The position numbers and the translations under genes are program-made. Source: a virus. Taken from it: a stretch of DNA of 37,274 bases. Positions 3,075-25,502 of this stretch are shown here, piece after piece; the first letter of the stretch is position 1; each line of letters opens with the position of its first letter. The stretch lies in IMG/VR virus record IMGVR_UViG_3300045988_155223, one strand, 5' to 3'. The notes under the pieces were generated by a model. It did no database searches. It saw only the letters and a program-made list of their open reading frames with translations, and was not told the origin of the DNA.

Positions 3075-6000
3075 ATGGCAGGAAAGATAAGAAACGAGGA
3101 TTTGCAGCTGAACATCATCGTAAATGGCGATGTTGGGCGCAAGCGTATATTGGAGTTGGAGCAGACGATGCGAGATACAGAATCGTCGATAAAGGCCACC
3201 AACCAGCAACTTCAGGCAATGTCTGCCGCTGGCAAGAACGGAACGAAAGAGTACAAGGCTTTGAACCAGACTCTTAAAGACCAGAAGAAATCGCTTGAGG
3301 AGAGCCGCAAGCAATTTGACAAACTTCAGAGCGGTATATCTCTCGAGAACAAGACCATTTCAGAACTTCGCAATCAGATAAAACTCACTAATGCGGCTCT
3401 TGGCAAAGCTGTCCCGGGGACTGAAAATTGGAAGAACTTGAATCGCACATTACAGCAAACAAAAACGCGGCTGAAAGAGCTTACTGACCAGTCTAAAGCG
3501 GTCCATTACACAACTTGTGAGCTGTCGGATAAGTTCAGTAAGTATATCGTGAGCATATATGGTGCGATTGGCGCGATTCAAGGTGCTTTCAATAAATTTA
3601 CTGGGGCTCGTGATGCTTTCCTCTTGTATGATGAAGCATTGACTGATGCGATGAAGACCACGAATCTGACGAAAGACGAGATCCTGGATCTGAGCGCCAG
3701 CCTGAAGCAGATTGATACGAAAACACCTCAGAATGAACTTCTCGCTCTTGTCCGTGCCGGCGGCAAACTCGGCATAACAGGACAGGAGGATCTTCTCGGA
3801 TTTGCAAGGGCCGCTGATAAAATCAACGTCGCATTGTCCGAGGATCTTGGAGGGAATGCCGAAGCTGCTATCACAGCCATTGGCAAGATGACAGACATCT
3901 TTAGCCTTACCGACGAGTATGGTATAGAGCAGGCTATGCTGAAAGTCGGTTCTACTATCAATGAACTCGGCATGGCTTCCACTGCCAATGAGGGCTATAT
4001 CGTGGACTTCTCCAAGAGACTTGCAGGTATTGCTCCAAATGCAGATATCAGCATTGACAAGATATTAGGTCTTGCCGCTACTCTCGACAAATATGGTCAG
4101 CAGTCTGAGACTTCCTCTACAGCTATCGGCCAGACGATTATGGCGATGTTCAAGCGAACTGAGACCTTTGCACAGATAGCCGGAATTCCGCTGGAGGAGT
4201 TCTCTGAACTCTTGAAGACAGACGTGAATGAGGCCCTATTGAAAGTTCTGGAAGGGATGCAGCGCGGAGAGGGTGGCCTTGCGTCCGTGACCGCAGCAAT
4301 GGAGGAAATGCACTTGAATGGGCAGAGGGCAGCCACGGTACTCGGCTCGCTGTCGAAGCATACGGATGAACTGCGTTCACAGCAGGAAATTGCAAACAAG
4401 GCTTTCTCTGCCGGCACTTCATTGACAGCGGAATTTGCGGTCAAGAACAACTCTTTGACGGCAGAACTGGAAAAGCAGAAGAAAGCAATCCTGGAGGATG
4501 TGGTAAGTCTTGGCGAGAAGCTGAATCCGGCAATGTCGGAAGGAATGACGATTGCAAATGGTGGGCTGAAAGTTATTTCAGGCCTTATAGGCGTCGCTGT
4601 GAAACTACGATTGATTATATATGCTTTAACGGCGGCTTATGTTGCAAATACTATTGCTAAAAAAGCCGCGTGGTTCTGGTCTAAAGCACATCGGGAGGAA
4701 TTGAACAAAGAAGTTTTGACATTAAGAACTGCTAAAGCCGGAACAATAGCATTTGCTATAGCACATAACCTTTTGGCCGGAAATGTCAAGGGTGCCGTTG
4801 CTGCTTTTAAGTTATTAGGGAAAGCTATTAAGTCAAATCCTGTAGGGTTAATAGTAGGCGCTTTTAGCGCAGTGGCGGGTATTGCCGTTTCGGTTGTTAG
4901 ACGATTTAATGAAATTTCCAAGGCTCAGCGTGAACTCAATAAAGCTTATACTGAGACCATCGACAAGATCGGACGGGAACGTAGCGCCCTGGATAGGATG
5001 GGAAAGGCGGTGACCGATGCAAAGATTGGCTCGCAGGAACGTGCTGATGCTATCAAAAAACTTAACGAGCGTTTCGGGGATTATCTCCCTCATTTGTTGA
5101 CGGAGAAATCTTCGAATGAGGAGGTAGCAGCGGCATTGAAATTGGCGAACACTGAGCTTGAGCGGAAAATAAAGTTGCAGGCGATGGAAGAGGCGCAGAC
5201 TAAGATCTTCAATTCGTTGACAGATGCTGCCAGCAAGGCGACTGATTCTGTGATAGGCTTCCTGGAGAGGTGGAATCAGACAAAACTGACTACTTCTCAA
5301 ATCGAGGCGGTTACTAAGGCGGTGGTAGATTATAGAGAGGCTATGAAGGCGGCGGAAGCCGAGCAGGATCCTCTCAAGAAATCGGCAGCTTTGTCGCTTG
5401 CCAAATCGAATCTGGCTGGGAAAGTGACAGCAGCGGGACTTAATTATCCTGATATGTCGCGTGCACAGAATGCTCAGGAGGCATATTATATGCGTCCATT
5501 GGTGGAGAGTTTCGATAAGATTCTTGACGGCTTGAGAGTGGCGGCCGCTGCGGCAGTGCGGGATGAAGCGAAACTCAATGGCCTATATGGGATGGCTTCA
5601 TCTGGCCCAGTCGATGAAAGCAGCCCGGACTTCATCGGACCGACATTGAAGAAGACCACGTCTGCAACTTCTTCTTCTCCATCTGTGACAGACGACACCA
5701 CATCATCTGGAGGCAAGTGGTCACTCGGTTCGGACAGCCAGTATCTCCAGGCTGCTTATGACCTGAAAGAGCAATATAGGCAGGGCGACATTAAATCAGA
5801 GGACGAATACCAGAAGAAGATTCTTGAACTGGAGATACAGACGCTTCAAGAAAGAATTGCTTCCGGCAAGGAGACAGGAGACCAGTTGCTTGCTCTAAAA
5901 TCACAGTTGGCGGATAAGCAAATCAAACTCCAGAAAGACGAATCCGATGCTGAAAAGGCTCAGGCGGCAAAGGACGCAGCTGATAAAAAGAAGCAGATTG

Positions 6001-12257: not shown

Positions 12258-13640
12258 TTGGATATGATAAAGTATTATGAGAATGAAGCGGCTTACGAGG
12301 CCGCAGTAAAGAGCGCATTTGAGAGCCAGGTTTCCCTCATCGGCGCGAGCAGCGAGTGTAAGTACGATGGCCGGAATGTGGTGGTAGGATTGAACTCAGC
12401 CACTACCGGAAGTATTGCTGTTCTCGATGGTCTGCACGCATTGAGGTTCATAGCGCCTCAGACGTTCAGCTCGAAGAGTTTTATGAGCAACTACGAAATC
12501 GTGGGTGTGGTGGCCATCGGTGTGGATCATCCGGACTTCAGAGGCGAAGTGGCCGTAATGAGCCACCAGTTCGCTGGTGCCGCATTGTCCACCAGATACT
12601 ACTTCAAGCTGTCAGGTTATACGCTTGACGGAGCAGAGCACACGGGAGTCTTGAGCATCAGAAGCGCTTCTGACAATTGGGCAGCCAATCAGGACTACAC
12701 GATTACGTACAAGGCGGACAATATCGTCGCCCTGGTATCTCAGCTCAATGCCTATTTCAAGGCAAACGAGCCATTCGTCGCACAAGACTGGGTAGCGATA
12801 GCAGACACCAATGGCGACGTCCTTCTGCATTTCAAGTACACGACCTGGCAACAGGCTGCGTATAACACGGCCAAGTCCGGTTTCTCTGTCGTATCAGCGA
12901 TTGCTCCACAGTGGGAGTCCACGTCAAGAATGCTCAGAATGAATGGACAAAGAAATGGCGAGGGAACCATCACGAATATGCAGCGAGCATTGGCATACTT
13001 CAGGGAGGATAATTCTAATACGGCTTATAACCCGGCCACAGACGTTGCTACGGCCAAGTTGTCATATCCGATATGCCTGCCTGGTTATCTCGGCAAGTCA
13101 AAATATCAAAGTGACCACTGCGCATACCTGAGAGGAATCTATGGTGAGGGCGAGGAAGGATGGCTCAAGTTTATGCAGAGTTTTCTTCCTGTGCTTCCGT
13201 CGGAGTATGGGATATTTGACGACAGCACATACGGCACGGAGAAGCAGAACACCTACTATCTGGCCAGTCTCAAGTATGTCGGACAAGACGGCGTAGAAAA
13301 GTATGTCAGCCCGGCTGCGAGGTTGGCGGCGGAGCGTGGTTTCGGCCACGAACTGCTCAAGCGCGGCGAATGGATAATCGGCAAGATGTCACGCATATTC
13401 AGCATCGTAGGCCAGTTGCGTTATCCGACGACACCGGACAAATTCGCGGACAAGGTGAATGCGGCTCTCGCTGCAATAGGCGCACCTGCTCTCGGTAATA
13501 ACACCTACGTTTGGTCTTGTTCCCGGTATGGCGAGAACAACGGTTGGGTTGCGTATGGCGGCAACGGTTTTGCCACCAGCAGCAACTTGTACGGCTCGGG
13601 CCTGGCTGTTCCCCTCGTGCTTTTGAAAGTTACCGCGTAA
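12258..13640 (+). CDS. DGR target (variable) protein, likely receptor-binding protein with a C-type-lectin-fold-like C-terminus
   Basis: 460 aa. The last ~45 codons contain the VR. The C-terminal pattern YVWSCSRYGENNGWVAYGGNGF...VPLV resembles DUF1566/CLec-type DGR variable regions (WS.....naW.v.f.nG). Confidence 0.85.
   Translation: MDMIKYYENEAAYEAAVKSAFESQVSLIGASSECKYDGRNVVVGLNSATTGSIAVLDGLHALRFIAPQTFSSKSFMSNYEIVGVVAIGVDHPDFRGEVAVMSHQFAGAALSTRYYFKLSGYTLDGAEHTGVLSIRSASDNWAANQDYTITYKADNIVALVSQLNAYFKANEPFVAQDWVAIADTNGDVLLHFKYTTWQQAAYNTAKSGFSVVSAIAPQWESTSRMLRMNGQRNGEGTITNMQRALAYFREDNSNTAYNPATDVATAKLSYPICLPGYLGKSKYQSDHCAYLRGIYGEGEEGWLKFMQSFLPVLPSEYGIFDDSTYGTEKQNTYYLASLKYVGQDGVEKYVSPAARLAAERGFGHELLKRGEWIIGKMSRIFSIVGQLRYPTTPDKFADKVNAALAAIGAPALGNNTYVWSCSRYGENNGWVAYGGNGFATSSNLYGSGLAVPLVLLKVTA
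13505..13619 (+). repeat. DGR variable repeat (VR)
   Basis: 115 nt aligning without gaps to 14242-14356. There are 10 mismatches and every one lies opposite an adenine in the TR copy. Confidence 0.9.
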
Positions 13641-13664
13641 AGCGTGGCTTAGTCTTAATCTTTC

Positions 13665-13691
13665 GGGCGAGGAGCGTCCCCGCTCCCGCCC
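13665..13691 (+). promoter_or_regulatory. GC-rich hairpin downstream of VR (DGR target-recognition hairpin and/or terminator)
   Basis: GGGCGAGGAGCG-TCCC-CGCTCCCGCCC gives 11 bp with one bulged A and a 4-nt loop, 45 nt after the VR end and 24 nt after the stop codon. Confidence 0.6.
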
Positions 13692-13711
13692 CTGCAAATT
13701 ACAAGTGAGTT

Positions 13712-14161
13712 ATGCCAAAGTCAGAATATTACGAACCGAAAAAGTTGCCCGGAGAGAGGCCTTATCCTCAGATTCTCAACGATGCGGAGGAATTGTACGG
13801 ACTTCTGCTCACAGCCGAGACTATGATGACAAAAGTTGACAAAATCAGGTACAACAATAGGGCTGTAGACCAGATTCTTGACGTAATCAAGGAGTTCGTT
13901 CTTGCTTATGACTTCGAGGACGACAGGGAGATTCATCTGAAGAGGATGTGCTCGAATGTGACAGTATTTATCAGGACAATGAGGCTCATCAATGACCGCA
14001 ATATCATCCACGTCTTCAATCCTCTCGAAACCGAGAAGCCGGACTCCGTCAAGATGAAGATAATGGAGCATCTCGGCAAGCTTGACGAAGGCGTAACTCG
14101 ATGGAAGAATTCAATTATTAAATCAAGGAACAAGGGCACGTCCGGCATTGCGAAGCAATGA
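13712..14161 (+). CDS. avd: Accessory variability determinant (Avd)-like protein
   Basis: 149-aa, predominantly helical-looking ORF in the canonical position between VR and TR. The assignment rests on synteny, not on a recognised motif. Confidence 0.6.
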   Translation: MPKSEYYEPKKLPGERPYPQILNDAEELYGLLLTAETMMTKVDKIRYNNRAVDQILDVIKEFVLAYDFEDDREIHLKRMCSNVTVFIRTMRLINDRNIIHVFNPLETEKPDSVKMKIMEHLGKLDEGVTRWKNSIIKSRNKGTSGIAKQ

Positions 14162-14241
14162 ACCGGCAGTCCCGAAAAATCATAAAGGAGGCCCTCCTTC
14201 CGCGTAGCGGCAGGTAAGAGTAAGGTATGGGCCTCGAACAG

Positions 14242-14356
14242 CAACGTTTGGTCTTGTTCCCGGTATGGCGAGAACAACGGTTGGGTTGCGAATGGCAACA
14301 ACGGTTTTGCCACCAACAACAACTTGTACAACTCGAACCTGGCTGTTCCCCTCGTG
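14242..14356 (+). repeat. DGR template repeat (TR)
   Basis: Invariant-donor copy of the VR. It contains 26 adenines by hand count, mostly in AAC codons in the VR reading frame. It ends 17 nt before the RT start codon. Confidence 0.9.
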
Positions 14357-14373
14357 AATTATGGTTGTACGAA

Positions 14374-15651
14374 ATGGAACTCGAGACTCTAAAAGATGAC
14401 TACTACGGCTGTCGCTCCAACAAGAGGCGAAGTCTGGACAGCATTCATTTTTCGCTGCATTGGGAGAGAGACCTGATGCGGCTGCTTAGGGATTTCGAGG
14501 ACCGCTCCCTTGTTCCTTTTTTATATGGATTCATCAATCCCAATCCAAGAGACAGAGAAGTCATAGCGTGCCTGATGGAGATGAAGACGCTCCAGTATCA
14601 CTTCGATTATCACGTGCGTCCGCTCGTCGAGGAAAGACTGACTGACAGCACGTTCAACAACCGCATAGGCTTCGGATGCGACAGGGCTATACTGAAGGTC
14701 CGTGACGACATCCGTAAAGTCTCGAAGAACTACACAAGGGATTGCTATATAATAAAGAGAGACATCAAGTCGTACTTTCCGTCAACGGATCTGGACCGCT
14801 CATACGAGAGCTATCGTGCCCTCATAGAAGAGTGTATCGAGGACAAGGACGAGAAGGACGACTTGTTGTATATTCTTCAAAGAGTCAATTATGCCTATCC
14901 TCAGGAACACGCACGTCTGAGGTCTCCGCGATTCAGATGGGATGACATCATAGCTGCCGGGAAAAGCGTTATCTTCAATAACGACCCGAAACACGGAGCC
15001 TGCCTCGGCAACCAGTTCTGGCAGGTGGAGAAGAACTTCGCGCTGGCTGAGTTTGACAGGTTTCAGGTGGACACCTGCGGACTTCATTACACAAGATTTG
15101 TGGATGATATGGTCTGGGTGGTGGAGAACCTGCAGGCCGGACTCGCCCACGTCGCCACCAGCGAAAAGATGCTGCTGGAGGAATACGGCTATCAGATGCA
15201 CCCACGCAAGAGGTATCAGCAGCACTACAGCAAGGGCGTCACTTTCCTGGGCGCGAAAATCAAGTTCAACAGGATCTATGCAAGCGACAGGGCCGTAAGG
15301 AACTGCAAGATGGCCATTCGGAAATGGAACAGGCTTGTGTATCCGTCAATGCTCGGCCACTTCCTGGACAGCATCAACAGCTACCTGGGGAACTTCAAGC
15401 ACAAGAACGCCTATGGCATCATCAGAGACCTTGTCGATGAGGTCAGTCCGAAATGGGAGAAATACTGCCATTATAACGATGACCGCAGATGTTTCGAAGC
15501 GAACGAGGGATATAAGCACAATGACATACTGAAGAGGAAATATCATTTCAAGTTCAATAAAGACAAAAGGAGTAAAAATGACAAGACAAGAAATCGAGGA
15601 CAGAAAGAACGTCCTGTTCTCCCTCATTTTGGACAGGGAGGCGAAGCTTAG
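14374..15651 (+). CDS. DGR reverse transcriptase
   Basis: RT motifs are present: DIKSYFPS (motif 1/2), CLGNQFWQ (variant of the DGR-type LGxxxSQ motif), RFVDDMVWV (YxDD-box variant) and VTFLGAKI. ATG 14374 is preferred, because the ORF-track start at 14227 would translate the TR itself. Confidence 0.9.
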   Translation: MELETLKDDYYGCRSNKRRSLDSIHFSLHWERDLMRLLRDFEDRSLVPFLYGFINPNPRDREVIACLMEMKTLQYHFDYHVRPLVEERLTDSTFNNRIGFGCDRAILKVRDDIRKVSKNYTRDCYIIKRDIKSYFPSTDLDRSYESYRALIEECIEDKDEKDDLLYILQRVNYAYPQEHARLRSPRFRWDDIIAAGKSVIFNNDPKHGACLGNQFWQVEKNFALAEFDRFQVDTCGLHYTRFVDDMVWVVENLQAGLAHVATSEKMLLEEYGYQMHPRKRYQQHYSKGVTFLGAKIKFNRIYASDRAVRNCKMAIRKWNRLVYPSMLGHFLDSINSYLGNFKHKNAYGIIRDLVDEVSPKWEKYCHYNDDRRCFEANEGYKHNDILKRKYHFKFNKDKRSKNDKTRNRGQKERPVLPHFGQGGEA

Positions 15652-17247: not shown

Positions 17248-17277
17248 CGGCTACGCAGCGATGTGTGGCCGTTTTTT
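17248..17277 (+). terminator. Intrinsic terminator after the lysis cassette
   Basis: CGGCTAC-N10-GTGGCCG stem (7 bp, one G-U pair) followed by TTTTTT, in the convergent junction with the integrase gene. Confidence 0.6.
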
Positions 17278-18427
17278 AGTCCAGGATATCCACATTCTTC
17301 AGGTCTTCTTCTGCCTTCTTCCTGTTTTTCCCTACATAAATTGATGTCATAGCGACTGAACTATGATCTGCTTGCTGCTGCACTGATGTCAGCGGAACTC
17401 CAGAACTGACCATGTTAGTAATGCCGGTGTCCTTCAGCGAATAGAACTGCAGCTCCATTGGGAACCCGCAACCTGGGCGCACGTATTCCTCCCAATAATT
17501 CGATATCTTTCTGGACCATATCGGTTTCGGCCCGGGAGAAAAGTCATATCCGCGTCTATGGGAAAACAAAAAGTAATCCGGGTTGGATAAGTCCAATTCT
17601 CTTACATACTTCATCATGGAGTCCGGAATCGTTCTGTAGGACTCATTGTCATTCTTGGCAATTTCTCCACGAATATGCACCAGTTGCTTTCCTAAGGAGA
17701 TGTCCTCGCATTTGAGCAGGGCAATCTCTTTAGGACGTATGAAACAACAGTAGCATAGCATTACCATCACCAGATACGGGATATTTTCTTTCTCTAGATA
17801 TCCTATCAGCTTGTCCATCTCCTCTTGCGTGAAAGTTCTTCTGGTCTTTGCCGTGAGGCGCTTCGGCTTTCTTCTGAGTTTGTTGAAAGGGTTCTCTGCT
17901 ATATATTGCCTCTCAGCCATCCAATTAAACAATGAACGATAGAACCGGAGGTAGTTATTATATGTGGTTGCAGACAACTTGCTTTCCATATCGTCCAGAA
18001 AGTCTATTGCATCCGTTTGCGTGAAAGAACTTGTATAGTAATTGTTGACATACCCTTTCTTTTTTAGCCATCCTTTGAACGTCTTGATGAACGAGTTATA
18101 ACTTCTCATTGAGTTGGCCTCGCTCTCTTTTGATTTGATGTCAATGAATTTGTCAAGCACGTCGCTCATAAGGGCGAAGCCTTTAGGCATAGCCTCCTCA
18201 ATAAACGGATTCCATCCGAGTTTGAGCTTGAGATCCAGGGATGCGATTACGGCGCGCGCTTCCTTCTTTCGCTCGCTCAGCGAATCACCTCGATTGAATT
18301 TTATTCTGACGCGCTTCATCTTGCCTGTGGCAGGATGTTTACAACTGAAAGAGATATACCAAATTTTTCCCTGCGTCAGTTTGGGTGGTATATAATCAAT
18401 GTGCGGGAGAGGCGACGAAAAGAACAT
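17276..18427 (-). CDS. int: Tyrosine site-specific integrase (Bacteroides arm-domain type)
   Basis: N-terminal arm-binding-type segment KIWYISFSCKHPATGKMKRVRIKF, a SAM-like core-binding domain, and a C-terminal catalytic region with HSSVAMTSIYV (His and Tyr nucleophile). The start is moved to ATG 18427, preceded by an A9 tract. The 60 extra codons up to 18607 cover direct repeats that look non-coding. Confidence 0.88.
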   Translation of the reverse strand: MFFSSPLPHIDYIPPKLTQGKIWYISFSCKHPATGKMKRVRIKFNRGDSLSERKKEARAVIASLDLKLKLGWNPFIEEAMPKGFALMSDVLDKFIDIKSKESEANSMRSYNSFIKTFKGWLKKKGYVNNYYTSSFTQTDAIDFLDDMESKLSATTYNNYLRFYRSLFNWMAERQYIAENPFNKLRRKPKRLTAKTRRTFTQEEMDKLIGYLEKENIPYLVMVMLCYCCFIRPKEIALLKCEDISLGKQLVHIRGEIAKNDNESYRTIPDSMMKYVRELDLSNPDYFLFSHRRGYDFSPGPKPIWSRKISNYWEEYVRPGCGFPMELQFYSLKDTGITNMVSSGVPLTSVQQQADHSSVAMTSIYVGKNRKKAEEDLKNVDILD

Positions 18428-18767
18428 TTTTTTTTCTTTGCACAACTCCACAAGGGCGTCATACAAGGAAAAAAATTGTCCCGTTTTTGTCCCGTTTGAG
18501 AGACTTGAACTCTGTAAAATATTGGCGATCAGTCCATTATGGACTTTTAGTGGAGATGGGCGGATTCCCCCATTTTGCTTAAAATTTTTTAAGTCTTTGT
18601 CTTCCATTTACTTAAAAATTTTATAAAATCGTTTTATGTGGGAATTCTGTCCCGTTTGCGTCCCGGCATAGTGGAGAATAAAGTGTTCTCCACTAATTAT
18701 TTAGCGCCTTTTTGGACAGAACTTTCACTCCAAATCTTCTAACATTTGTTAGATTTTTTAAGCAGAT
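18428..18767. promoter_or_regulatory. attP-like region with arm-type direct repeats, an inverted repeat and an operator
   Basis: TTGTCCCGTTT occurs twice in tandem (18476-18486, 18487-18497), and TGTCCCGTTT occurs at 18648-18657 with a degenerate GTCCCG at 18660-18665. TAGTGGAGA occurs at 18548-18556. A 10-bp inverted repeat TAGTGGAGAA-N7-TTCTCCACTA lies at 18669-18695. TAACATTTGTTA lies at 18740-18751. Confidence 0.5.
18740..18751. promoter_or_regulatory. Operator-type palindrome TAACATTTGTTA between the STAS-like gene and int
   Basis: Perfect 12-bp palindrome identical to 1481-1492 and in the same family as 20511-20522 and 20535-20546. Confidence 0.5.
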
Positions 18768-19121
18768 TTATATCGACATCGAGGAAAAAATTTGCTCCAA
18801 ATCAGATATGGTTTTGGGACGTGAATACGGCTTCAGTGTTATCTCTTTGGTTCCGCTTTTCTGCGTTCTGGAAACTGCGAGATACATTTGCCGGAGGTCA
18901 TCGGACATATTCGAGACGGAAACATTGATGCCACTTTCAGAAGATTTCTTCAGTTCATTGTAGAACTCGTCCATAAAACTTCTTGTAGTAAACTGCACGC
19001 CTGAAAAATCCAAGTCAACGTCGTTTTCTTTATAACTATACACGGCAGAGAATATGTCGTGAGCGGATATCCTGTTCAGAATATCACGGCCGATAAGTTC
19101 TTGTATCAGTATTGTTCTCAT
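18768..19121 (-). CDS. STAS-like (DUF4325-like) protein
   Basis: DVDLDFSGVQFTTRSFMDEFYNEL matches the DUF4325 hallmark (hydrophobic-x-LDF-x-GV-x5-SF-x-DE). ATG 19121 lies 1 nt after the upstream gene's stop codon. The ORF track lists a TTG start at 19130. Confidence 0.6.
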   Translation of the reverse strand: MRTILIQELIGRDILNRISAHDIFSAVYSYKENDVDLDFSGVQFTTRSFMDEFYNELKKSSESGINVSVSNMSDDLRQMYLAVSRTQKSGTKEITLKPYSRPKTISDLEQIFSSMSI

Positions 19122-19122
19122 A

Positions 19123-20013
19123 TTATTCAACGTATTTCAAATAACTAAATGTAGGCATATTGTTCGGAATCCTAAAGGATACTATGGTTCCTTTGAATTT
19201 GATTCCTAACGGAAGTTCTATGTATTGCGCCATTGCCTTATTCGCGGCGAAAGCAGCGTCTCCAGAAGCCAGAAGATATTCCCCGGATAGTCCTTTTGTA
19301 AGCATTTTGATAGTAGTCCTCAAACCGTATCCACGGTTTTCTGTTTCAGGAAGATTCTTGGCTGAGATTCCTGAAACGGCAGATTGGAGGGCCTCTATGT
19401 CGGAGCCGATTCCGGCAGTGCGAGGATTTTCCGAATAACTTCCCAAAAGAGTACCTCCGGTGTCTGCAATGCAGATGTCCGTGTATCCTTTTGTCGGATA
19501 GCTCTGAGCTGTTATATATCCATAGGGAGAGCGTGCGTGTTCAACAATGTTGTCGATGGTCTCTCCGATTATATACCTTAATCCGTTTTCTACATTGCCT
19601 CCAAAACAGCCTTGGGTGCTTAGTATAGACTGTATAGCAGAAAGGATGGCGTCTCTCTTGTCAGTTCCTGCAATGTCTGTTGGAAATTTTATGACAGGGA
19701 TGTACGAGTTGCCAGAGAACTTTGCCATAAGAATCTTGAATTCGGAATCTCTCATTATTGAGGCATTAATACCGCCATCAGTAAAATGCACAGTGCTCAA
19801 GTATGAGTTTGTCGCAGAGAATGTTGGTTTCGGCTCAATGCTCTCTAAAAATACCAGTGCCGGCAATAGGAATGACGGCATAACGAAGCTTATTCCAGAC
19901 AGTGAAATATCTTGGTCTTCTGACACGGAAATCTCGTGGCAGAATTTGACGGCGGATAAGAATCCTCTGGAAAGTTTGTCGTCACGAACATTTATAATTG
20001 GGCGTATGGTCAT
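19123..20013 (-). CDS. GHKL-superfamily ATPase, SpoIIAB/RsbW-like kinase fold with a ~130-aa N-terminal extension
   Basis: N-box-like ETIDNIVEHA, G1-like ICIADTGGTLLG and G2-like NRGYGLRTTIKM. The start codon lies 2 nt after the repressor's stop codon. Confidence 0.6.
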   Translation of the reverse strand: MTIRPIINVRDDKLSRGFLSAVKFCHEISVSEDQDISLSGISFVMPSFLLPALVFLESIEPKPTFSATNSYLSTVHFTDGGINASIMRDSEFKILMAKFSGNSYIPVIKFPTDIAGTDKRDAILSAIQSILSTQGCFGGNVENGLRYIIGETIDNIVEHARSPYGYITAQSYPTKGYTDICIADTGGTLLGSYSENPRTAGIGSDIEALQSAVSGISAKNLPETENRGYGLRTTIKMLTKGLSGEYLLASGDAAFAANKAMAQYIELPLGIKFKGTIVSFRIPNNMPTFSYLKYVE

Positions 20014-20015
20014 AA

Positions 20016-20450
20016 CTATTTTTGACTCAATATTGATAAAAGTTTATTGATCTGAGCGTCTTTTTCTTTGATCTGAGCGTCTTTTTCTTTGATCTGAGCG
20101 TCTTTTTCTTTGATGCGTTCATCCAGAATCTCTATCTGGGCCTTCAGGACGTCAGGGGAGTCGGAATAATATTGGCGGTTGTCGACATTATTATTCGTGT
20201 TGTTATCACCAGATATGACAACTCCGGAGCCATTAGTGATTGTAGAAGGCTTAATCATATCTCCCTTTCCAAGCACTAGCCACTCTAGTGATAAATCAGG
20301 ATAATTATCTATAATAGCTTCTAGTTTATCCGCGCCTAAACTCTTGCCGCTATCCAAAAAACCAATAGCAAAGCCAGTTTTTTGATAAAAACTATTTTTG
20401 CTAATCCCTTTACTATTAAGGTATTGCTTTATTTTTTCTTTTTCGTACAT
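20016..20450 (-). CDS. CI-like phage repressor (HTH) with a C-terminal heptad-repeat coiled coil
   Basis: N-terminal HTH ending in DLSLEWLVLGKGDM, the characteristic WLLTG.G.M tail of Phage_CI_repr-type HTH domains. The C-terminus has three IKEKDAQ heptads. It is divergent from a Cro-like gene across an operator-rich spacer. Confidence 0.7.
   Translation of the reverse strand: MYEKEKIKQYLNSKGISKNSFYQKTGFAIGFLDSGKSLGADKLEAIIDNYPDLSLEWLVLGKGDMIKPSTITNGSGVVISGDNNTNNNVDNRQYYSDSPDVLKAQIEILDERIKEKDAQIKEKDAQIKEKDAQINKLLSILSQK
20049..20111. repeat. Perfect 21-bp tandem repeat x3 inside the repressor gene
   Basis: GATCTGAGCGTCTTTTTCTTT at 20049-20069, 20070-20090 and 20091-20111. It is in frame and encodes (KDAQIKE)x3 on the - strand. 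Confidence 0.95.
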
Positions 20451-20492: not shown

Positions 20493-20546
20493 TAACTTTG
20501 CATCGGGTTCTAACATATGTTAGAAGAAATGTTATAACAAATGTTA
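20493..20546 (+). promoter_or_regulatory. Rightward early promoter -7 box (TAACTTTG) followed by operators TAACATATGTTA and TAACAAATGTTA
   Basis: TAACTTTG at 20493-20500 matches TAnnTTTG. The palindromes lie at 20511-20522 and 20535-20546, with an extra half-site ATGTTA at 20529-20534. All sit between the divergent repressor and Cro-like genes. Confidence 0.55.
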
Positions 20547-20575: not shown

Positions 20576-20764
20576 ATGAGACAGACGCAGAGGAAAGAGC
20601 GGGACAAGGTTATCAAGTCCGAGTACAGGGAAATGGTTAGGCGCGGTTCTCCGATTTGGGAGGCCAAGGAACAGCTGGCCGCGAAATACGGAATGTGTTC
20701 CCAGTCGATACATAGAATAGTCAATAGCAGAAGAGCCAAAAACAGGCAAGTCAAGAATAGTTAA
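20576..20764 (+). CDS. Cro-like small HTH protein
   Basis: 62 aa, basic, with an HTH-like segment KEQLAAKYGMCSQSIHRIV. It is the first gene of the rightward operon opposite the repressor. Confidence 0.45.
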   Translation: MRQTQRKERDKVIKSEYREMVRRGSPIWEAKEQLAAKYGMCSQSIHRIVNSRRAKNRQVKNS

Positions 20765-20783
20765 GTGTTATGTGTTAAGAGCC

Positions 20784-21035
20784 ATGACGATGCAAGTGAA
20801 CTTTATACTTCGGAACTCTACGATGATGGAGAAGCTGCTGGCCATTCCAGATTTGGTGGCCGGGAATTTATACCCGACGCTTCCTGTGTGTATGAATAGA
20901 ATCGATGTTGGCAGCAAGGTACAGCATAATAGCATTCTGAATGACGGCGCAGTACTTCATCTGTCGTACAGGGTGACGAAAGTGGAAAAGGGTTGCATCG
21001 CATGGCTTGATTTGGAAAATTTCAAAATCTCATAA
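20784..21035 (+). CDS. Hypothetical early protein
   Basis: ORF with ATG at 20784 (the track lists a GTG at 20772). No motif recognised. Confidence 0.45.
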   Translation: MTMQVNFILRNSTMMEKLLAIPDLVAGNLYPTLPVCMNRIDVGSKVQHNSILNDGAVLHLSYRVTKVEKGCIAWLDLENFKIS

Positions 21036-21062
21036 ATCGTCATCTGGAATCAATCCGAACCC

Positions 21063-21235
21063 GGGAGGGCAAGGGTAAGTAAGGATCCGCCGGAGTGAAC
21101 CTGGATAGGCGTCCGGCGGACAAGACGGAGGAAGGTGCGGATATGGAGTGCCGCACAGGGTTGTCTGATAAGCATTAAAGGTCTCGCGTCAGAGAAGCCC
21201 GGGGCCACAGGGAGGTTCGATTCCTCTCCCTCCGA
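21063..21235 (+). ncRNA. Candidate structured RNA 1 ending in a tRNA-like T-arm/acceptor module
   Basis: ORF-free GC-rich segment. It has a 9-bp hairpin TCCGCCGGA (21086-21094) / TCCGGCGGA (21112-21120) and a 6-bp hairpin GTGCGG (21135-21140) / CCGCAC (21151-21156). A T-arm GGAGG-TTCGATT-CCTCT lies at 21211-21227, followed by CCCTCC, which can pair with GGAGGG at 21064-21069. No class could be assigned. Confidence 0.3.
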
Positions 21236-21286
21236 CAATCGCAGCGATGCGCTGTAGTTTCTCATTATCTAATTAATTGTACTGGA

Positions 21287-21373
21287 AGGGTAGTTCCGCG
21301 GGTGGCGCGGTGCAAGCGGTCGGAATCAGAAACGGCGCAGCTGCAAGGGACGGTTCGAGTCCGCCCTACCCTG
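21287..21373 (+). ncRNA. Candidate tRNA-like RNA 2 (acceptor, D-arm and T-arm present, no canonical anticodon arm)
   Basis: The 7-bp acceptor AGGGTAG (21287-21293) pairs with CTACCCT (21366-21372). The D-arm is CCGC-GGGTGGC-GCGG, and the T-arm is GACGG-TTCGAGT-CCGCC with one A-C mismatch. The 37 nt in between do not form a 5-bp stem / 7-nt loop anticodon arm. Confidence 0.35.
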
Positions 21374-21393
21374 CGAATCAAAACACATGAATT

Positions 21394-21579
21394 ATGACAG
21401 TAAAAGATTTGAAAGACTATCTCCGTCATTATCACGAGGATGACGAACTCTATGTCGTTACAGATTGGTCGGCAAAGAGGGATGGCGTAATAACAGCGCT
21501 CAAGCCTCTTAAGGACGTAACATTTCAGTCGGTCCGCTCGGATTGCGACGAAGTTCATCAGGTTCTGCTTGGATTTTAA
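21394..21579 (+). CDS. Hypothetical small early protein
   Basis: 61-aa ORF with an ATG start, followed by a strong bidirectional terminator. Confidence 0.5.
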   Translation: MTVKDLKDYLRHYHEDDELYVVTDWSAKRDGVITALKPLKDVTFQSVRSDCDEVHQVLLGF

Positions 21580-21583
21580 TGCA

Positions 21584-21605
21584 AAAGCCCGGCGGACCGG
21601 GCTTT
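21584..21605. terminator. Bidirectional intrinsic terminator
   Basis: AAAGCCCGG-CGGA-CCGGGCTTT, a 9-bp stem flanked by A and T runs, between convergent genes (stops at 21579 and 21613). Confidence 0.8.
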
Positions 21606-21612
21606 TAAAGAG

Positions 21613-22389: not shown

Positions 22390-22584
22390 ATGTACACTGA
22401 CATTGATAAAACCGGGCGGGTGTCGGTTTTCGAACTGGACCCGGTCGAGGTTAAGATTCTTACGGAAAGCATCGGCCATTTCATCGATGCGGCCACCTCG
22501 GTAAGAGCCATCGAGGGAGGACAAGAAACCACCATCCGGAAGGCTGAAACAATGCTACGGAAAATTAGAAGTTGTCAACTATGA
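22390..22584 (+). CDS. Hypothetical early protein
   Basis: 64-aa ORF with an ATGA overlap on the primase-helicase start. Confidence 0.55.
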   Translation: MYTDIDKTGRVSVFELDPVEVKILTESIGHFIDAATSVRAIEGGQETTIRKAETMLRKIRSCQL

Positions 22585-25502
22585 TCAAGAAAGAAGACAT
22601 ATTCGATGCGACGGACGGAGGCAAGGCGGTAATCACGCATTACTATCCTCAGAGCTCCGCCTGCTTCCGCGGTTCCGGAAGCAAGAACTTCCGTATCAGG
22701 GAGGATGACAAGAACCCGTCTGCCACTGTGTTCTGCAAGGACGGAATCTGGTTCGTCCAGGACAAGGGCGGTTCTGACAACAAGGCCAGGACTGCGATCC
22801 AGATTGTCCAGGAGGCTGAAGGTCTCGGTTTCCCGCAGGCGATAGAATGGATTGCGCGCAAATTCGCGCCGGCACTGCTGGAGGACAAGTGCGCTTATGA
22901 CAACAGCAAGCCGCAGCCGGACATCGAGGAGGTTCCAGGACAGCCGTCCATTACTATACAGGTGAGGAAGTCTGGAGAGTTCACGCAAAAGGAACTGGAC
23001 AGGCTTGGCTACAGGATCACGAAGGACCTCTGCGACCAGCTCTGCCTCAAACCTCTCGATTATTACATCACGGCGGCCAACAAGAAAGGCAAGAGCTACA
23101 AGATATCGGGCAATGACAATTATCCGATGTATTTCTACGACTATGGCAAGACCGGAGCCGACGGCCACACTTGGGGAAAGATATATCAGCCGCTGGGCGA
23201 TGTTCGTTTTCTTTATTTCGGACAGAAGCCGGAAGACTTCTTTTTCGGAGACCGGGACTTTCTGGCCGCTTATGCCAAGGCGAAGAAGGGCATATATCCT
23301 GGACAGGTGGAATCTGATGACGAAGGCGGGGAAGAGGTGCAGATGAAATGGAAGCAGCTCATCATCTGTTCCGGTCCTTCCGATGCGCTGAACGTGAGAG
23401 GCGCTGATGCGGGCTATCATGTCTGCTGGCCGAATAGTGAGACGGCCGAGCTGACGGAGTACCAGATGGGGCTTCTCAGCCAGCTGGCCGAGAATATCTA
23501 TATCCTGTATGATATCGACGATACGGGCATTGCGAACATGTACAAGACCGCGCTGCGTTATCTCGATCTCAAGATCATACAGCTGCCGAATGAACTGAAG
23601 AACTACAGGGACCGCAAAGGGAAGCCGTGCAAGGACGCCAAGGACTTCTTCGTGCATTTCCGCCGTCCGGAGAACCAGAACCCGTACAAGCTCTTCAGCG
23701 ATTTGGTGAAACTTTCCGGTGGACTGAAGTTCTGGACTGTGAAACCGGCGAAGACTGGCTTTACGTTTGACATAAACAACGAGCAGTTGTATTCGTTCCT
23801 GCAGGCCGGAGGCTTCTACCGCATCGCGTCCTCGGCCAATGCCAAAGGATACACGTTCTGCCACATTCACGACAATGTCGTCACGCTGATAGATGAGCAG
23901 GCAATCGCATCGACGGTCTCAAGCTATTTGCTGGAGTATCTGAAGACGCATCCAAAATATTACTCCCAGACACTGGCGAATACGATATACAGGAGCAATC
24001 AGATCCGTCTGGCCAGTCTTGAGAAACTGAAGGTGATAGAGCCTAATTTCAAGAGCTGGAATGAGACGTCTGACCATTTCTTCTTCCGCAACGGGATCTT
24101 CCGCGTGTCCGCCGACGGGCTGAAGGAAGTGAAGCCGTCGGACTGTCCGTGCATGGTGTATAAGAACAAGATCCTGGAGCATGACTTCAAGGTGGAGTCT
24201 CCGTTCTTCGATATCGAATATACGCCTGAATATGCGACCCTCCTGGCACAGCTGAAAGCCGCCGTCCCCCAATCCCCCGAATTTTTCTTTTATAAGAAGT
24301 CAATTGACGCTCTAGGGGATGCAGGCAAGTATCGTCTCAAGATTCTGAGAAATGACCTGAATTTCATGCAGTACGTGTACAATACCGGCAGGACATACTG
24401 GAGGAAGGAGGAAATCGGCATCCCCCTCAGTGAGGATGAGAAGGCTGAACATGACTTGAACTTCATCAATAAGGTCATGGCGCTGGGCTTTCTGATGGCC
24501 AAGCACAAGAATGCCGGCCAGCCTTATGCGGTATTCTGCATGGAGACTGAACAAAGCGATGAAGGTACGCACCTTGGAGGAACCGGCAAGTCCCTGTATG
24601 CGTCCAGTCTGGAGCAGATGAGGAAGCAGCTGTTCATCGACGGCCAGAACCTCCAGCCGGGCAAATATGACTTCCTTCTGCAGGGTGTGGAGAAAGGAAT
24701 CACGGACAACGTCTTCATCGATGACCTGAACAACAGCGTGGACCTCCATAAGTTCATGCCGATGATCACGGGCAAGATGGTGGTCAATGCAAAATATGTC
24801 GCGTCCTATACCATTGACTTCAAGGATTCTCCGAAAGTGGTGTTCACTTCGAACCATGCAATCAGGAATTTCGACGCGTCGCTGCGGCGCCGTACTTGGT
24901 TCGTGGCGTTCACGGACTATTATCATGCGGATGATCCGCAGAGAGGTCTGAAGGAGCGCAGCCCGCTGACGGAGTTCGGCACCAACCTGATTTCGGACTA
25001 TTCTCCGGAGGATATGAACAAGTTCTACAACTTCATGCTGAACTGCATATCGGTATGGATGAAACTCCAGGTCCGGATACAGCCGCCGATGCGGGATATC
25101 GAGAAGAGAATTCTCCAGAAGTCGCTGTCAGACGAGTTCCTGTTCTGGGCTGAGGACTGGTTCACTGAAAATCGCCTGAACACACTCGTGAAGAAGGATG
25201 AGGCTTTCGAGGCTTACAAGGCTACCTTGCCACCGAAGTATGCGCTGCTGATGAAGATGAAGTCCTTCAAGACGAAACTCATCCAGTACTGCACGTATAA
25301 GGATTGGGATTTCAATCCGGAGTCGCTCATGACGACGCAGTCGGAGCGGGAGCGTAACGACATCCGGCGCAAGGTGAACTATGAGGACGTGTATTTCTTC
25401 TATATAGACACCAGGAAGAACGGACAAGTCTCCGACAGTGCGTCAGAGAGTCAGAATGTGGCGACGGTGTCTGACGAATCCCTGGGGAAGCCGCCTTTTT
25501 AG
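22581..25502 (+). CDS. Replicative primase-helicase fusion (DnaG-like N-terminus + Toprim + P-loop SF3/D5-like NTPase)
   Basis: Toprim-like segment LIICSGPSDALNV...IYILYDIDDTGI, Walker A GGTGKS, and Walker B-like NVFIDDL. The N-terminus resembles a primase zinc-binding domain but lacks the Cys/His ligands. Confidence 0.8.
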   Translation: MIKKEDIFDATDGGKAVITHYYPQSSACFRGSGSKNFRIREDDKNPSATVFCKDGIWFVQDKGGSDNKARTAIQIVQEAEGLGFPQAIEWIARKFAPALLEDKCAYDNSKPQPDIEEVPGQPSITIQVRKSGEFTQKELDRLGYRITKDLCDQLCLKPLDYYITAANKKGKSYKISGNDNYPMYFYDYGKTGADGHTWGKIYQPLGDVRFLYFGQKPEDFFFGDRDFLAAYAKAKKGIYPGQVESDDEGGEEVQMKWKQLIICSGPSDALNVRGADAGYHVCWPNSETAELTEYQMGLLSQLAENIYILYDIDDTGIANMYKTALRYLDLKIIQLPNELKNYRDRKGKPCKDAKDFFVHFRRPENQNPYKLFSDLVKLSGGLKFWTVKPAKTGFTFDINNEQLYSFLQAGGFYRIASSANAKGYTFCHIHDNVVTLIDEQAIASTVSSYLLEYLKTHPKYYSQTLANTIYRSNQIRLASLEKLKVIEPNFKSWNETSDHFFFRNGIFRVSADGLKEVKPSDCPCMVYKNKILEHDFKVESPFFDIEYTPEYATLLAQLKAAVPQSPEFFFYKKSIDALGDAGKYRLKILRNDLNFMQYVYNTGRTYWRKEEIGIPLSEDEKAEHDLNFINKVMALGFLMAKHKNAGQPYAVFCMETEQSDEGTHLGGTGKSLYASSLEQMRKQLFIDGQNLQPGKYDFLLQGVEKGITDNVFIDDLNNSVDLHKFMPMITGKMVVNAKYVASYTIDFKDSPKVVFTSNHAIRNFDASLRRRTWFVAFTDYYHADDPQRGLKERSPLTEFGTNLISDYSPEDMNKFYNFMLNCISVWMKLQVRIQPPMRDIEKRILQKSLSDEFLFWAEDWFTENRLNTLVKKDEAFEAYKATLPPKYALLMKMKSFKTKLIQYCTYKDWDFNPESLMTTQSERERNDIRRKVNYEDVYFFYIDTRKNGQVSDSASESQNVATVSDESLGKPPF

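Follow-up and report, generated by a model that had tools for sequence, protein, structure and literature searches.

Two tandem tRNA-like RNAs without a usable anticodon arm in the early operon of a temperate Bacteroidales phage: probable processing signals or tRNA decoys

The early operon and its RNA block

The window analyzed here is a stretch of viral DNA of 37,274 nucleotides (IMG/VR record IMGVR_UViG_3300045988_155223), and the element under study is a block at positions 21036-21393 that holds two tRNA-like modules in tandem on the plus strand. The modules, M1 and M2, are here termed tRNA-like-domain (TLD) elements; they lie in an early operon, oriented rightward, of a temperate phage of gut Bacteroidales. 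It is very likely that both are real tRNA-like RNAs under selection. Given that neither has a usable anticodon arm, they are probably not decoders, but rather cutting signals for host tRNA-processing enzymes, decoys of tRNA, or both.

The phage in the window encodes a tyrosine integrase, a repressor-like helix-turn-helix (HTH) protein, a Mor-like activator and a DUF5906 primase, as well as a holin, an M15 peptidase, an S49 protease and a diversity-generating retroelement (DGR). The rightward early operon runs from a Bacteroidetes-type -7 promoter box through an open reading frame (ORF) for the Mor-like protein, an ORF of 87 amino acids (aa), the RNA block and an ORF of 61 aa to a terminator (Table 1), with both modules oriented as the flanking ORFs. 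The -7 box at 20493-20500 is the likely start of the early operon that holds both RNAs; a pattern search found no such box within 21036-21393, the nearest being that at 20493. Searches with Pfam, PHROGs, PADLOC and NCBIfam gave no functional hint for the neighbouring proteins.

Table 1. Coordinates of the modules, of their surroundings in the window, and of related elements in other loci (prefix L)
Feature	Coordinates	Strand	Details
Tyrosine integrase gene	17276-18607	-	
Repressor-like HTH protein gene	20016-20450	-	
Bacteroidetes-type -7 promoter box	20493..20500	+	TAACTTTG; pattern TANNTTTG; in the AT-rich gap between divergent ORFs
Mor-like activator ORF	20576-20764	+	
87-aa ORF	20772-21035	+	upstream neighbour of the RNA block
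ORF remnant	21036..21085	+	decayed 3' remnant of the ORF for a small protein with two transmembrane (TM) segments; last codons ...TREGKGK and stop; not part of the RNA
5' leader hairpin	21086..21120	+	conserved; 9-bp stem, 17-nt loop with conserved CCUGGAUAGGCG; fold z = -2.74
M1	21126..21235	+	110-nt tRNA-like RNA; minimum free energy (MFE) fold recovers cloverleaf
M1 acceptor	21126-21131/21229-21234	+	6 bp, CGGAGG/CCTCCG
M1 D-arm	21135-21156	+	loop ATATGGAGTG
M1 central helix	21157-21168/21189-21200	+	long, imperfect, ~12 bp, replaces anticodon arm; 20-nt loop 21169-21188
M1 single strand	21201-21209	+	9 nt
M1 T-stem	21210-21215/21223-21228	+	6 bp; T-loop TTCGATT 21216-21222
M1 discriminator	A21235	+	
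GNRA hairpin	21240..21251	+	small; CGCA-GCGA-TGCG; follows M1 in all tandem loci; loop GCGA or GTGA
M2	21287..21373	+	87-nt tRNA-like RNA; 25 pairs, covariation in 5/5 helices
M2 acceptor	21287-21293/21366-21372	+	7 bp, AGGGTAG/CTACCCT
M2 U8-U9		+	between acceptor and D-arm
M2 D-arm	21296-21310	+	CCGC-GGGTGGC-GCGG; 4-bp stem
M2 central stem	21312-21322/21333-21344	+	3+2+4 bp (= 5+4); closes 10-nt loop 21323-21332
M2 T-arm	21349-21365	+	5-bp stem, loop TTCGAGT; conserved A.C mismatch; 4 unpaired nt precede
M2 discriminator	G21373	+	
Leader	21374..21393	+	A-rich, 20 nt, from M2 discriminator to ATG of ORF 21394-21579
61-aa ORF	21394-21579	+	downstream neighbour of the RNA block
Intrinsic terminator	21583..21606	both	bidirectional; AAAAGCCCGG-CGGA-CCGGGCTTTT; operon end; conserved in L004, L006, L007, L049
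DUF5906 primase gene	22572-25502	+	
tRNA-like elements, 103 and 65 nt	L012:3595-3697 and 3790-3854		
tRNA-like element	L044:2611-2682		
tRNA-like elements, short form	L006:3856-3925; L211:1250-1319; L214:6944-7013		
~300-nt RNA, seven loci	L020:1344-1662; L023:1967-2281; L024:2367-2659; L025:1530-1845; L027:2685-2977; L065:2187-2505; L074:1345-1661		293-319 nt

The block is GC-rich, as a preliminary description of this DNA had noted, with a GC content of 0.561 against 0.485 for the window, which places it in the top 1.1% of 358-nt windows. Also as described there, it holds no plausible ORF on the plus strand: the longest is 40 aa, and indels of 1, 2 and 5 nt in relatives break the frames. These indels between clades disrupt every ORF on both strands, which rules out a protein-coding explanation of the conservation. 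At several covarying positions the plus strand carries G.U pairs, which on the opposite strand would be A.C. Given these strand-specific pairs and the ORF-breaking indels, the conservation is that of a plus-strand RNA structure. Two T-loop signatures had been pointed out on this strand, and GGTTCGANTCC does occur exactly twice in 37 kb, both times inside the block; 0.04 occurrences are expected in the window, and none of 100 shuffles reached two. The thermodynamic z-score of the whole block is -0.26, which is not significant; the case rests on covariation and not on stability. The folds of the single modules have z-scores of -1.6 and -0.6, values that are ordinary for tRNAs, and MFE folding of each module alone results in cloverleaf-like structures.

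Covariation in module 2

The structure of M2 was tested with eight distinct sequences, and controls were generated by sliding the 3' partners by 1-3 columns. Standard pairs are formed in 95.5% of cells, and two-sided changes are found in 8 of the 25 pairs, with at least one in each of the five helices; the slid controls are 39-60.5% paired, with 0-2 two-sided pairs. The changes include A1-U72 to G-C and U5-A68 to A-U in the acceptor, C-G to U-A in the D-stem, C-G to G-C in the T-stem, and C-G to U-A, G-C to A-U (twice) and A-U to U.G in the central stem.

Much of the anatomy first proposed for M2 is retained, namely its coordinates, the perfect 7-bp acceptor, the D-arm and the T-loop TTCGAGT. 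The T-stem given as GACGG/CCGCC contains an A.C mismatch at its second pair, and this mismatch is kept in all relatives compared. The center had been drawn as an irregular TGCA/TGCA plus GCG/CGC helix with a loop of ~17 nt; covariation instead favors GCA(A)GC/GCTGC plus GTCG/CGGC, closing a 10-nt loop at 21323-21332. This non-canonical central domain is conserved in all three clades. The loop is found as GAAUCAGAAA, AAAUCGGAAA and ACAGCAGAAA, with no conserved U33 or triplet, and the discriminator is G, U or A among relatives, such that M2 cannot be an ordinary decoder. The comparison of the sequences thus marks M2 as a selected RNA that is competent to adopt the L-shape.

The central proposal of the preliminary description, two non-canonical tRNA-like modules on the plus strand, is therefore sustained by acceptor, D and T arms with support from covariation and by the lack of a 5-bp/7-nt anticodon arm. 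Relatives of the block do carry compensatory changes, and no conserved small protein-coding gene accounts for its conservation.

Module 1 and the 5' hairpin

The T-arm of M1, GGAGG-TTCGATT-CCTCT, lies at 21211-21227 as first reported, but the suggested closure of the module by GGAGGG at 21064-21069 is not supported. Homologues place the 5' acceptor strand at CGGAGG, 21126-21131, a placement based on the Rfam alignment, on homology to the 70-nt element of L006 and on all 14 loci. Two perfect hairpins had been described in the enclosed sequence, and both the 9-bp hairpin at 21086-21120 and the 6-bp hairpin at 21135-21156 are present. Their roles differ from the original picture, as the 6-bp hairpin is the D-arm of M1 and the 9-bp hairpin is upstream of the tRNA-like body.

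The T-stem of M1 is best taken as 6 bp long and has the forms GGGAGG/CCTCTC, ACGGGG/CCCCGT, GCAGGG/CCCTGC, GCCGGG/CCCGGT and GCGGGG/CCCCGC, with two-sided changes in four of its six pairs and 100% of cells paired. The acceptor and D-arm are invariant in the 14 loci, and their pairing is neither supported nor contradicted; at the sequence level, this invariance points firmly to a strong sequence constraint. Beyond the six invariant acceptor pairs, a seventh would be A.C or A-U, and the alternative is a 6/6 split with the T-stem. In the long form of M1, the ~12-bp helix and 20-nt loop are found in all clades despite differences in sequence (79.7% of cells paired). In the short form, found in L006, L211 and L214, a 16-nt unpaired linker joins the D and T arms and there is no central arm; both partners of one D-stem pair have been lost together.

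The stem of the 5' hairpin covaries, with the forms TCCGCCGGA/TCCGGCGGA, GACCGCCAGG/CTTGGCGGTC, CCCCGG/CCGGGG and CTCTTGGG/CCCGGGAG. Its loop is complementary to the M1 single strand between the central helix and the T-stem (21095-21104 with 21199-21208). In the window the complementarity consists of GUG/CAC plus CCUGG/CCGGG, and in the L077 clade it extends over 9 contiguous bp, a match that was reached by 19 of 5000 shuffled loops. This may be a pseudoknot, one in competition with the GGG/CCC pairs at the outer end of the M1 helix. Downstream of M1, the GNRA hairpin at 21240-21251 is either a weak terminator-like element or a structural one, and it is followed by a T-rich variable linker up to 21286. 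Kissing between the loops of M1 and M2 is not conserved, as judged by eye on the sequences of the relatives.

The first 50 nt of the block (21036-21085), where the closing strand of M1 had initially been placed, are instead the remnant of a deleted ORF for the two-TM protein, and the GGAGGG at 21064 belongs to its last codons. This protein of 58-67 aa has an HCD(A/L)AR motif, is encoded directly 5' of the hairpin and M1, and has no match in Pfam or PHROGs. The ORF is intact upstream of M1 in nine of the 11 cassette loci examined (L006, L079, L081-L084, L211, L214 and L218), as at L006:3570-3773, with the homologues in L079, L082 and L214 likewise intact. The region has a deletion in the window, L004 and L049, and ~150 extra nt in L007.

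Comparison with tRNA and other RNA models

The modules combine features of canonical tRNA, including an acceptor closed by the module ends with a discriminator, a D-arm with GG in its loop and a 7-nt TTCRANY T-loop, with the absence from both of a canonical anticodon arm (5-bp stem, 7-nt loop, U33, triplet and R37). Neither is called as a canonical tRNA at normal thresholds by ARAGORN with default settings or by Rfam. With default settings ARAGORN found no tRNA or transfer-messenger RNA (tmRNA) gene in the window or in 60 related loci. With the intron search on and a 90% threshold, it called a tRNA-Ser(aga) at M1 (30-nt intron) and a tRNA-Leu(cag) at M2 (4-nt intron); these relaxed calls are forced, as their drawings contradict the covarying arms, and the tmRNA mode returned nothing. 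Rfam at gathering scores gave no match in the window or seven loci, other than an unrelated DUF805b motif in L044 (RF02914, 44.2 bits, L044:1469-1503, minus strand). At E-values up to 10, Rfam added only tRNA-Sec, at 21127-21233 (16.5 bits) and at 21285-21374 (14.4 bits), the gathering score being 47.

Identity as tmRNA was rejected, given that both modules have G3-C70 and not G3.U70. A tmRNA tag ORF was likewise excluded, as the central domains are only 33-53 nt with no ORF, ARAGORN in tmRNA mode found none, and Rfam had none in the window. Nor is the block a DGR template or a retron RNA: it has no repeat elsewhere in the window, and the DGR lies at 13.5-15.7 kb. The YrlA-like mimicry that had been offered as a precedent does not apply, since the topology is the opposite, with the acceptor made from the module ends and the central domain a closed stem-loop, and there is no Rsr gene; no TROVE/Ro60 domain was found among ~40 window proteins scanned with Pfam, neighbours included. 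Mimicry of tRNA is itself a known kind of phenomenon; a literature search found no paper that describes these RNAs, and they have no Rfam family.

Distribution and mosaicism

Relatives were sampled from 75 IMG/VR loci that encode a relative of the primase, and by exact-pattern scans of IMG/VR. Among the primase-related loci, the block is found only in L004, L007 and L049 (93-96% identity). It is absent from L001-L003 although their primase is 99% identical, and therefore the block is a mosaic module. Outside the primase matches, the same cassette is found in other phage backbones, namely the L077 clade (L077, L079, L081, L083 and L084) and the L082 clade (L082 and L218). The short form with only M1 is found in L006 and in L211 and L214, which are loci from metagenome-assembled genomes (MAGs). 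In all, the cassette has relatives in three other phage backgrounds. The only genomes with related elements are two uncultured human-gut Bacteroidales MAGs.

The start of M1 lies 154-171 nt from M2. The nearest relative of the window for M1 is the L077 clade (92.8%) and for M2 it is the L082 clade (87.4%, against 73.6% for L077), suggesting that the two modules reassort independently. The L077 clade encodes CCA directly after both discriminators, and the L082 clade does so after that of M1. Among close relatives, homology breaks at the edges of the cassette, at 21029/21054 and 21397/21580, and L004, L007 and L049 have another sequence in place of the 61-aa ORF. In these mosaic genomes, a further role of the conserved RNAs may be that of linkers for recombination.

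Further searches added little to this set. No match to the block was found by blastn in public phage records, and further pattern scans of IMG/VR and a scan for the neighbouring membrane protein returned the same ~11 contigs. A metagenome scan with the loose pattern GCGGGTGGCGCGN{30,50}GGTTCGAG gave 120 chance matches, mostly from GC-rich soil sequences, and one real locus, L166. A covariance model of M2 found no further copies of M2 and recognised other tRNA-like elements weakly.

Further tRNA-like elements upstream of the primase gene

A scan for T-arms in primase-related loci revealed more plus-strand tRNA-like elements upstream of the primase gene, all negative by ARAGORN (Table 1). Some of these are 65-72 nt and entirely without an anticodon arm. 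In seven loci there is an RNA of ~300 nt with a 7-bp acceptor, GGGGAUG/CAUCCCC, that is compensated to GGGGACG/CGUCCCC. It has a covarying D-hairpin, a T-arm and, in place of the anticodon arm, a multi-helix domain of ~240 nt with GNRA hairpins and an optional insert. RNAalifold predicts 88 pairs for this RNA, eight of them covarying, and it ends 20-22 nt before the next ATG. It has no Rfam family, and the only weak similarity is to the 3' end of tmRNA; it is not a tmRNA, as G3.U70 is absent and the candidate tag frame does not survive a 1-nt indel in L023. A group I intron in a tRNA was also rejected, as there is no Rfam intron match and the flanks form no anticodon stem.

What is constant across these unrelated types is the top half of tRNA and the elbow, that is, a 12-bp stack of acceptor and T-stem, the T-loop GGTTCGANTCC and the GG of the D-loop. 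Read from the sequences, this constant part would be only the DETERMINANTS that tRNA-processing enzymes use. The central domain varies from a 9-bp stem with a 10-nt loop (M2) to a ~12-bp helix (M1), a 16-nt linker (L006, L211 and L214) or ~240 nt (the type in L020). In seven of eight independent types or clades, 18-26 nt separate the end of the last tRNA-like element from the next ATG, although the ORFs that follow are unrelated; the leaders in between are A-rich and begin with C.

Other features of the window

The complete DGR lies at 12258-15651. Its variable repeat (13500-13619) is at the 3' end of the ORF at 12258-13640 and its template repeat is at 14237-14356, with 10 of the 11 mismatches between the two at template adenines. 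The ORF for the reverse transcriptase spans 14227-15651 (RVT_1), and the intervening ORF at 13712-14161 is a candidate Avd. Amid the structural genes, the ORF at 1570-2145, with a SocA/Panacea antitoxin domain, overlaps the start of the ORF at 2145-2597, which has no family match; the two are a candidate toxin-antitoxin pair. Two overlapping ORFs on the minus strand (18768-20013) lie between the integrase and repressor genes and are a candidate moron or defence pair. That at 19123-20013 matches phrog_3364, with weak similarity to part of DrmA and motifs that by eye resemble a GHKL ATPase, and that at 18768-19130 matches phrog_20761. The C-terminus of the repressor-like HTH protein is a tandem heptad repeat, (IKEKDAQ)x3, that is probably a coiled-coil oligomerisation tail.

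A proposed role in processing of the early transcript

The modules may be processing elements embedded in the early transcript. Transcription of the operon would start at the promoter near 20500 and end at the terminator at ~21600, and each module would fold to an L-shape via its intact acceptor/T minihelix and the D/T elbow. Host RNase P would cut 5' of C21126 and A21287. A 3' tRNA-processing activity, which may be RNase Z or, where CCA is encoded, RNase E with exonucleases, would cut after A21235 and G21373, and CCA would be added where it is missing. Excision would split the upstream cistrons from the downstream one, whose mRNA would keep an A-rich leader of ~20 nt, and would free two stable tRNA-shaped RNAs that are unable to decode and that may additionally act as tRNA mimics in trans. 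To our knowledge, mRNAs in the host phylum do not rely on initiation driven by a Shine-Dalgarno sequence. What the sequences show is the structures with their conservation and covariation, the strand, the lack of an anticodon arm, the place in the operon and the distance to the next AUG; in this scheme we infer transcription, cleavage by RNase P and RNase Z, addition of CCA, stability of the RNAs and any function in trans. That M1 and M2 work by excision and punctuation with release of non-decoding mimics is proposed with moderate confidence.

Processing elements fit best because the determinants for RNase P, RNase Z and the CCA-adding enzyme are conserved, the central domain is dispensable, the modules have no promoter of their own, CCA is encoded in two clades, and the placement before the AUG is fixed. 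Processing signals were not on the list of possible explanations in the preliminary description, and of the readings considered here they fit the positional evidence best.

Several observations weigh against a role as cutting signals. The clade of the window does not encode CCA, as the discriminators are followed by CAA (A-CAA) and CGA (G-CGA); the cassette is rare, with about 11 IMG/VR contigs and two MAGs; and the covariation is drawn from ~14 loci that represent only three or four clades. A cutting signal needs neither tandem modules nor a covarying central stem in M2 with conserved loop positions. Cutting also does not need the 5' half of M1 to be invariant in sequence across clades with different T-stems, and it does not need the conserved loop of the 5' hairpin. 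Together, the tandem modules, the M2 stem-loop, the invariance of M1 and the hairpin loop suggest a sequence-specific partner. In addition, the spacing of ~20 nt could be the minimum distance of a structured RNA from a start codon in a compact genome. Since the invariant 5' half of M1, the conserved hairpin loop with its capacity for pairing and the covarying M2 stem-loop exceed what cutting needs, there is room for a function in trans, such as that of a decoy.

Alternative explanations

An appreciable, though lesser, possibility, akin to the regulatory mimics or decoys listed in the preliminary description, is that the RNAs are trans-acting tRNA decoys or sponges that bind a factor of the host or of a rival element specific for the top half or elbow of tRNA, such that cutting of the operon is incidental. 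Candidate targets are a tRNA-targeting defence nuclease or toxin, a toxin that modifies the CCA end, or a processing or modification enzyme, with the result that real tRNAs are protected or defence is blunted. The 5' half of M1 is invariant beyond what pairing requires, and the central stem-loop of M2 covaries with conserved loop positions. The regions that hold the cassette, in at least three unrelated phage backbones, are early, mosaic and of the accessory type; the cassette is missing from phages with a 99% identical primase, and its modules reassort independently. Neutralisation of tRNA-cleaving defences by phage tRNAs is an established theme (see PMC11464382 and PMC11555353). The known anti-defence phage tRNAs, however, are canonical with anticodon loops, which M1 and M2 lack, and no tRNA-directed enzyme or defence gene was found linked to the cassette. 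It is improbable, if still worth weighing, that the hairpin, M1, the GNRA hairpin and M2 form one RNA of ~290 nt with two tRNA-like domains and tertiary contacts that acts as a unit. This would account for the conserved order and spacing (154-171 nt from the start of M1 to M2), the GNRA hairpin between the modules, the complementarity of the 5' hairpin loop to the variable strand of M1 (9 bp in the L077 clade, equalled by 19 of 5000 shuffled loops), and the presence in relatives of one ~300-nt RNA with tRNA-like ends at the same genomic position. It is harder to reconcile with the AT-rich linker between M1 and M2, which is variable in sequence and length, with the solitary M1 in L006, L211 and L214, or with the different nearest relatives of M1 and M2, and the pairing of the loop with the variable strand is interrupted in the clade of the window and absent from the L082 clade.

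The remaining alternatives are all very unlikely. That the modules are decoding tRNAs of an unorthodox but functional kind, for instance with a short intron or an expanded anticodon loop, and are aminoacylated and used by the ribosome would agree with the forced ARAGORN calls (intron search on, 90% threshold) and with the encoded CCA of some clades. The drawings of these forced calls are contradicted by the covarying arms, however, and the loop of M2 has no conserved triplet or U33, its discriminator is G, U or A, which leaves no conserved set of identity elements, G3.U70 is absent from both modules, the short form of M1 is armless, and no Rfam tRNA model gives more than 16.5 bits, where the gathering score is 47. 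We also know of no route in bacteria for the splicing of 4- or 30-nt tRNA introns. Equally hard to credit are decaying tRNA pseudogenes, an attP core, or conserved linkers that promote mosaic recombination, suggested by the homology breakpoints at the cassette edges and by the tyrosine integrase of the phage, as such integrases often target tRNA genes. Covariation disfavors degenerate tRNAs and mere recombination targets, both of which the preliminary description had listed: compensatory changes in every helix indicate selection on RNA structure, and all three clades have kept the odd central domain of M2, with no independent decay. For an attP core, the 3' portion of a tRNA would suffice and would have to match the host gene, and here both stem strands covary between phages; the integrase gene is also 2.5 kb away, behind three other genes. 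There is very little to recommend C4-like antisense regulators, in which RNase P would free an RNA from the operon leader and the loops of this RNA would base-pair with the mRNA downstream, so as to block its translation. The position in the immunity or early operon of a temperate phage and the likely processing by RNase P resemble the C4 RNA of P1 and P7. Rfam gave no match to this family even at E-values up to 10, and in the window and L082 clades the energies of duplexes between the loops and the downstream sequence do not improve on those of shuffles. A good duplex is seen once, for M1 within the L077 clade (7 of 500 shuffles for L079 and 12 of 500 for L083), and it is not conserved; the window holds six complements of the M2 loop, no enrichment over the 4.9 expected.

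It is conceivable, although we regard it as doubtful, that gut Bacteroidales phages have a hot spot, upstream of the primase gene and beside an ORF for a small membrane protein, for undescribed anticodon-less tRNA mimics (M1, M2, the armless 65-70-nt forms and the ~300-nt RNA) that act in trans after excision by RNase P and RNase Z. Such mimics could be decoys for tRNA-directed defence or toxin enzymes, or could hijack factors for tRNA processing or translation.

Relation to known systems

Mimicry of tRNA in bacterial viruses is known mainly from canonical phage tRNAs, tmRNA and Y RNAs. The RNAs described here add a conserved and covarying kind that keeps only the part of tRNA read by processing enzymes and elbow-binding factors, with the decoding arm dropped or remodelled; several gut Bacteroidales phages, unrelated to one another, have them in their early regions. 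As tRNA finders and Rfam miss these RNAs, phage annotation would gain from a model based on them. If they act in trans, they would be a new RNA tool in the conflict of phage and host over tRNAs.

Other phage-encoded RNAs are co-transcribed and matured by RNase P, namely the species 1 and 2 RNAs from the tRNA cluster of T4, whose function is still unknown, and the C4 RNA of P1 and P7. These have no sequence or Rfam relationship to the RNAs described here, and complementarity of the C4 type was not found. With tmRNA, M1 and M2 have in common the acceptor, the T-arm, the D-loop element and a long helix that replaces the anticodon stem; they differ in their lack of G3.U70, a tag ORF or a pseudoknot ring, in their real D-stem and in their length of 87-110 nt. 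Canonical and class II tRNAs and the 8/4 and 9/3 allo-tRNAs (PMC5389517) share the 12-bp stack of acceptor and T-stem, the T-loop and the GG of the D-loop, and M1 may use an unusual 6/6 split of this stack. The allo-tRNAs keep a normal anticodon arm and decode (PMC5389517), whereas M1 and M2 lack the 5-bp/7-nt arm.

The YrlA RNA of M. smegmatis carries an acceptor-like stem of 7 bp and is a substrate both for RNase P and for CCA addition (PMC4201824). Like the phage RNAs, YrlA is non-decoding and has tRNA-like D and T arms, and it is also found in some phages (PMC4201824). It is circularly permuted, however, such that its "acceptor" is a closed stem-loop and the ends of the RNA form the stem that binds Ro60/Rsr at the site of the anticodon arm, and it is encoded beside rsr (PMC4201824). 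The phage RNAs have an open acceptor and a closed central domain.

The closest parallel is with the t-elements of plant mitochondria, which are non-canonical tRNA-like structures with a GGTTCRANYCC arm that direct cleavage by RNase P and RNase Z to generate mRNA ends, to which non-encoded C and A are added (PMC1920247). The phage RNAs differ in their tandem arrangement, their elaborate and covarying central domains and the conserved 5' hairpin; there is no sequence relationship, and cleavage of the phage RNAs is only proposed. What is shared is what marks a t-element, that is, a non-canonical cloverleaf with an acceptor stem and a GGTTCRANYCC T-arm, located within an mRNA precursor and adjoining ORFs. 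By this analogy, the phage elements most plausibly work like t-elements, and if they are processing signals, they would be the phage counterpart of mitochondrial tRNA punctuation and t-elements.

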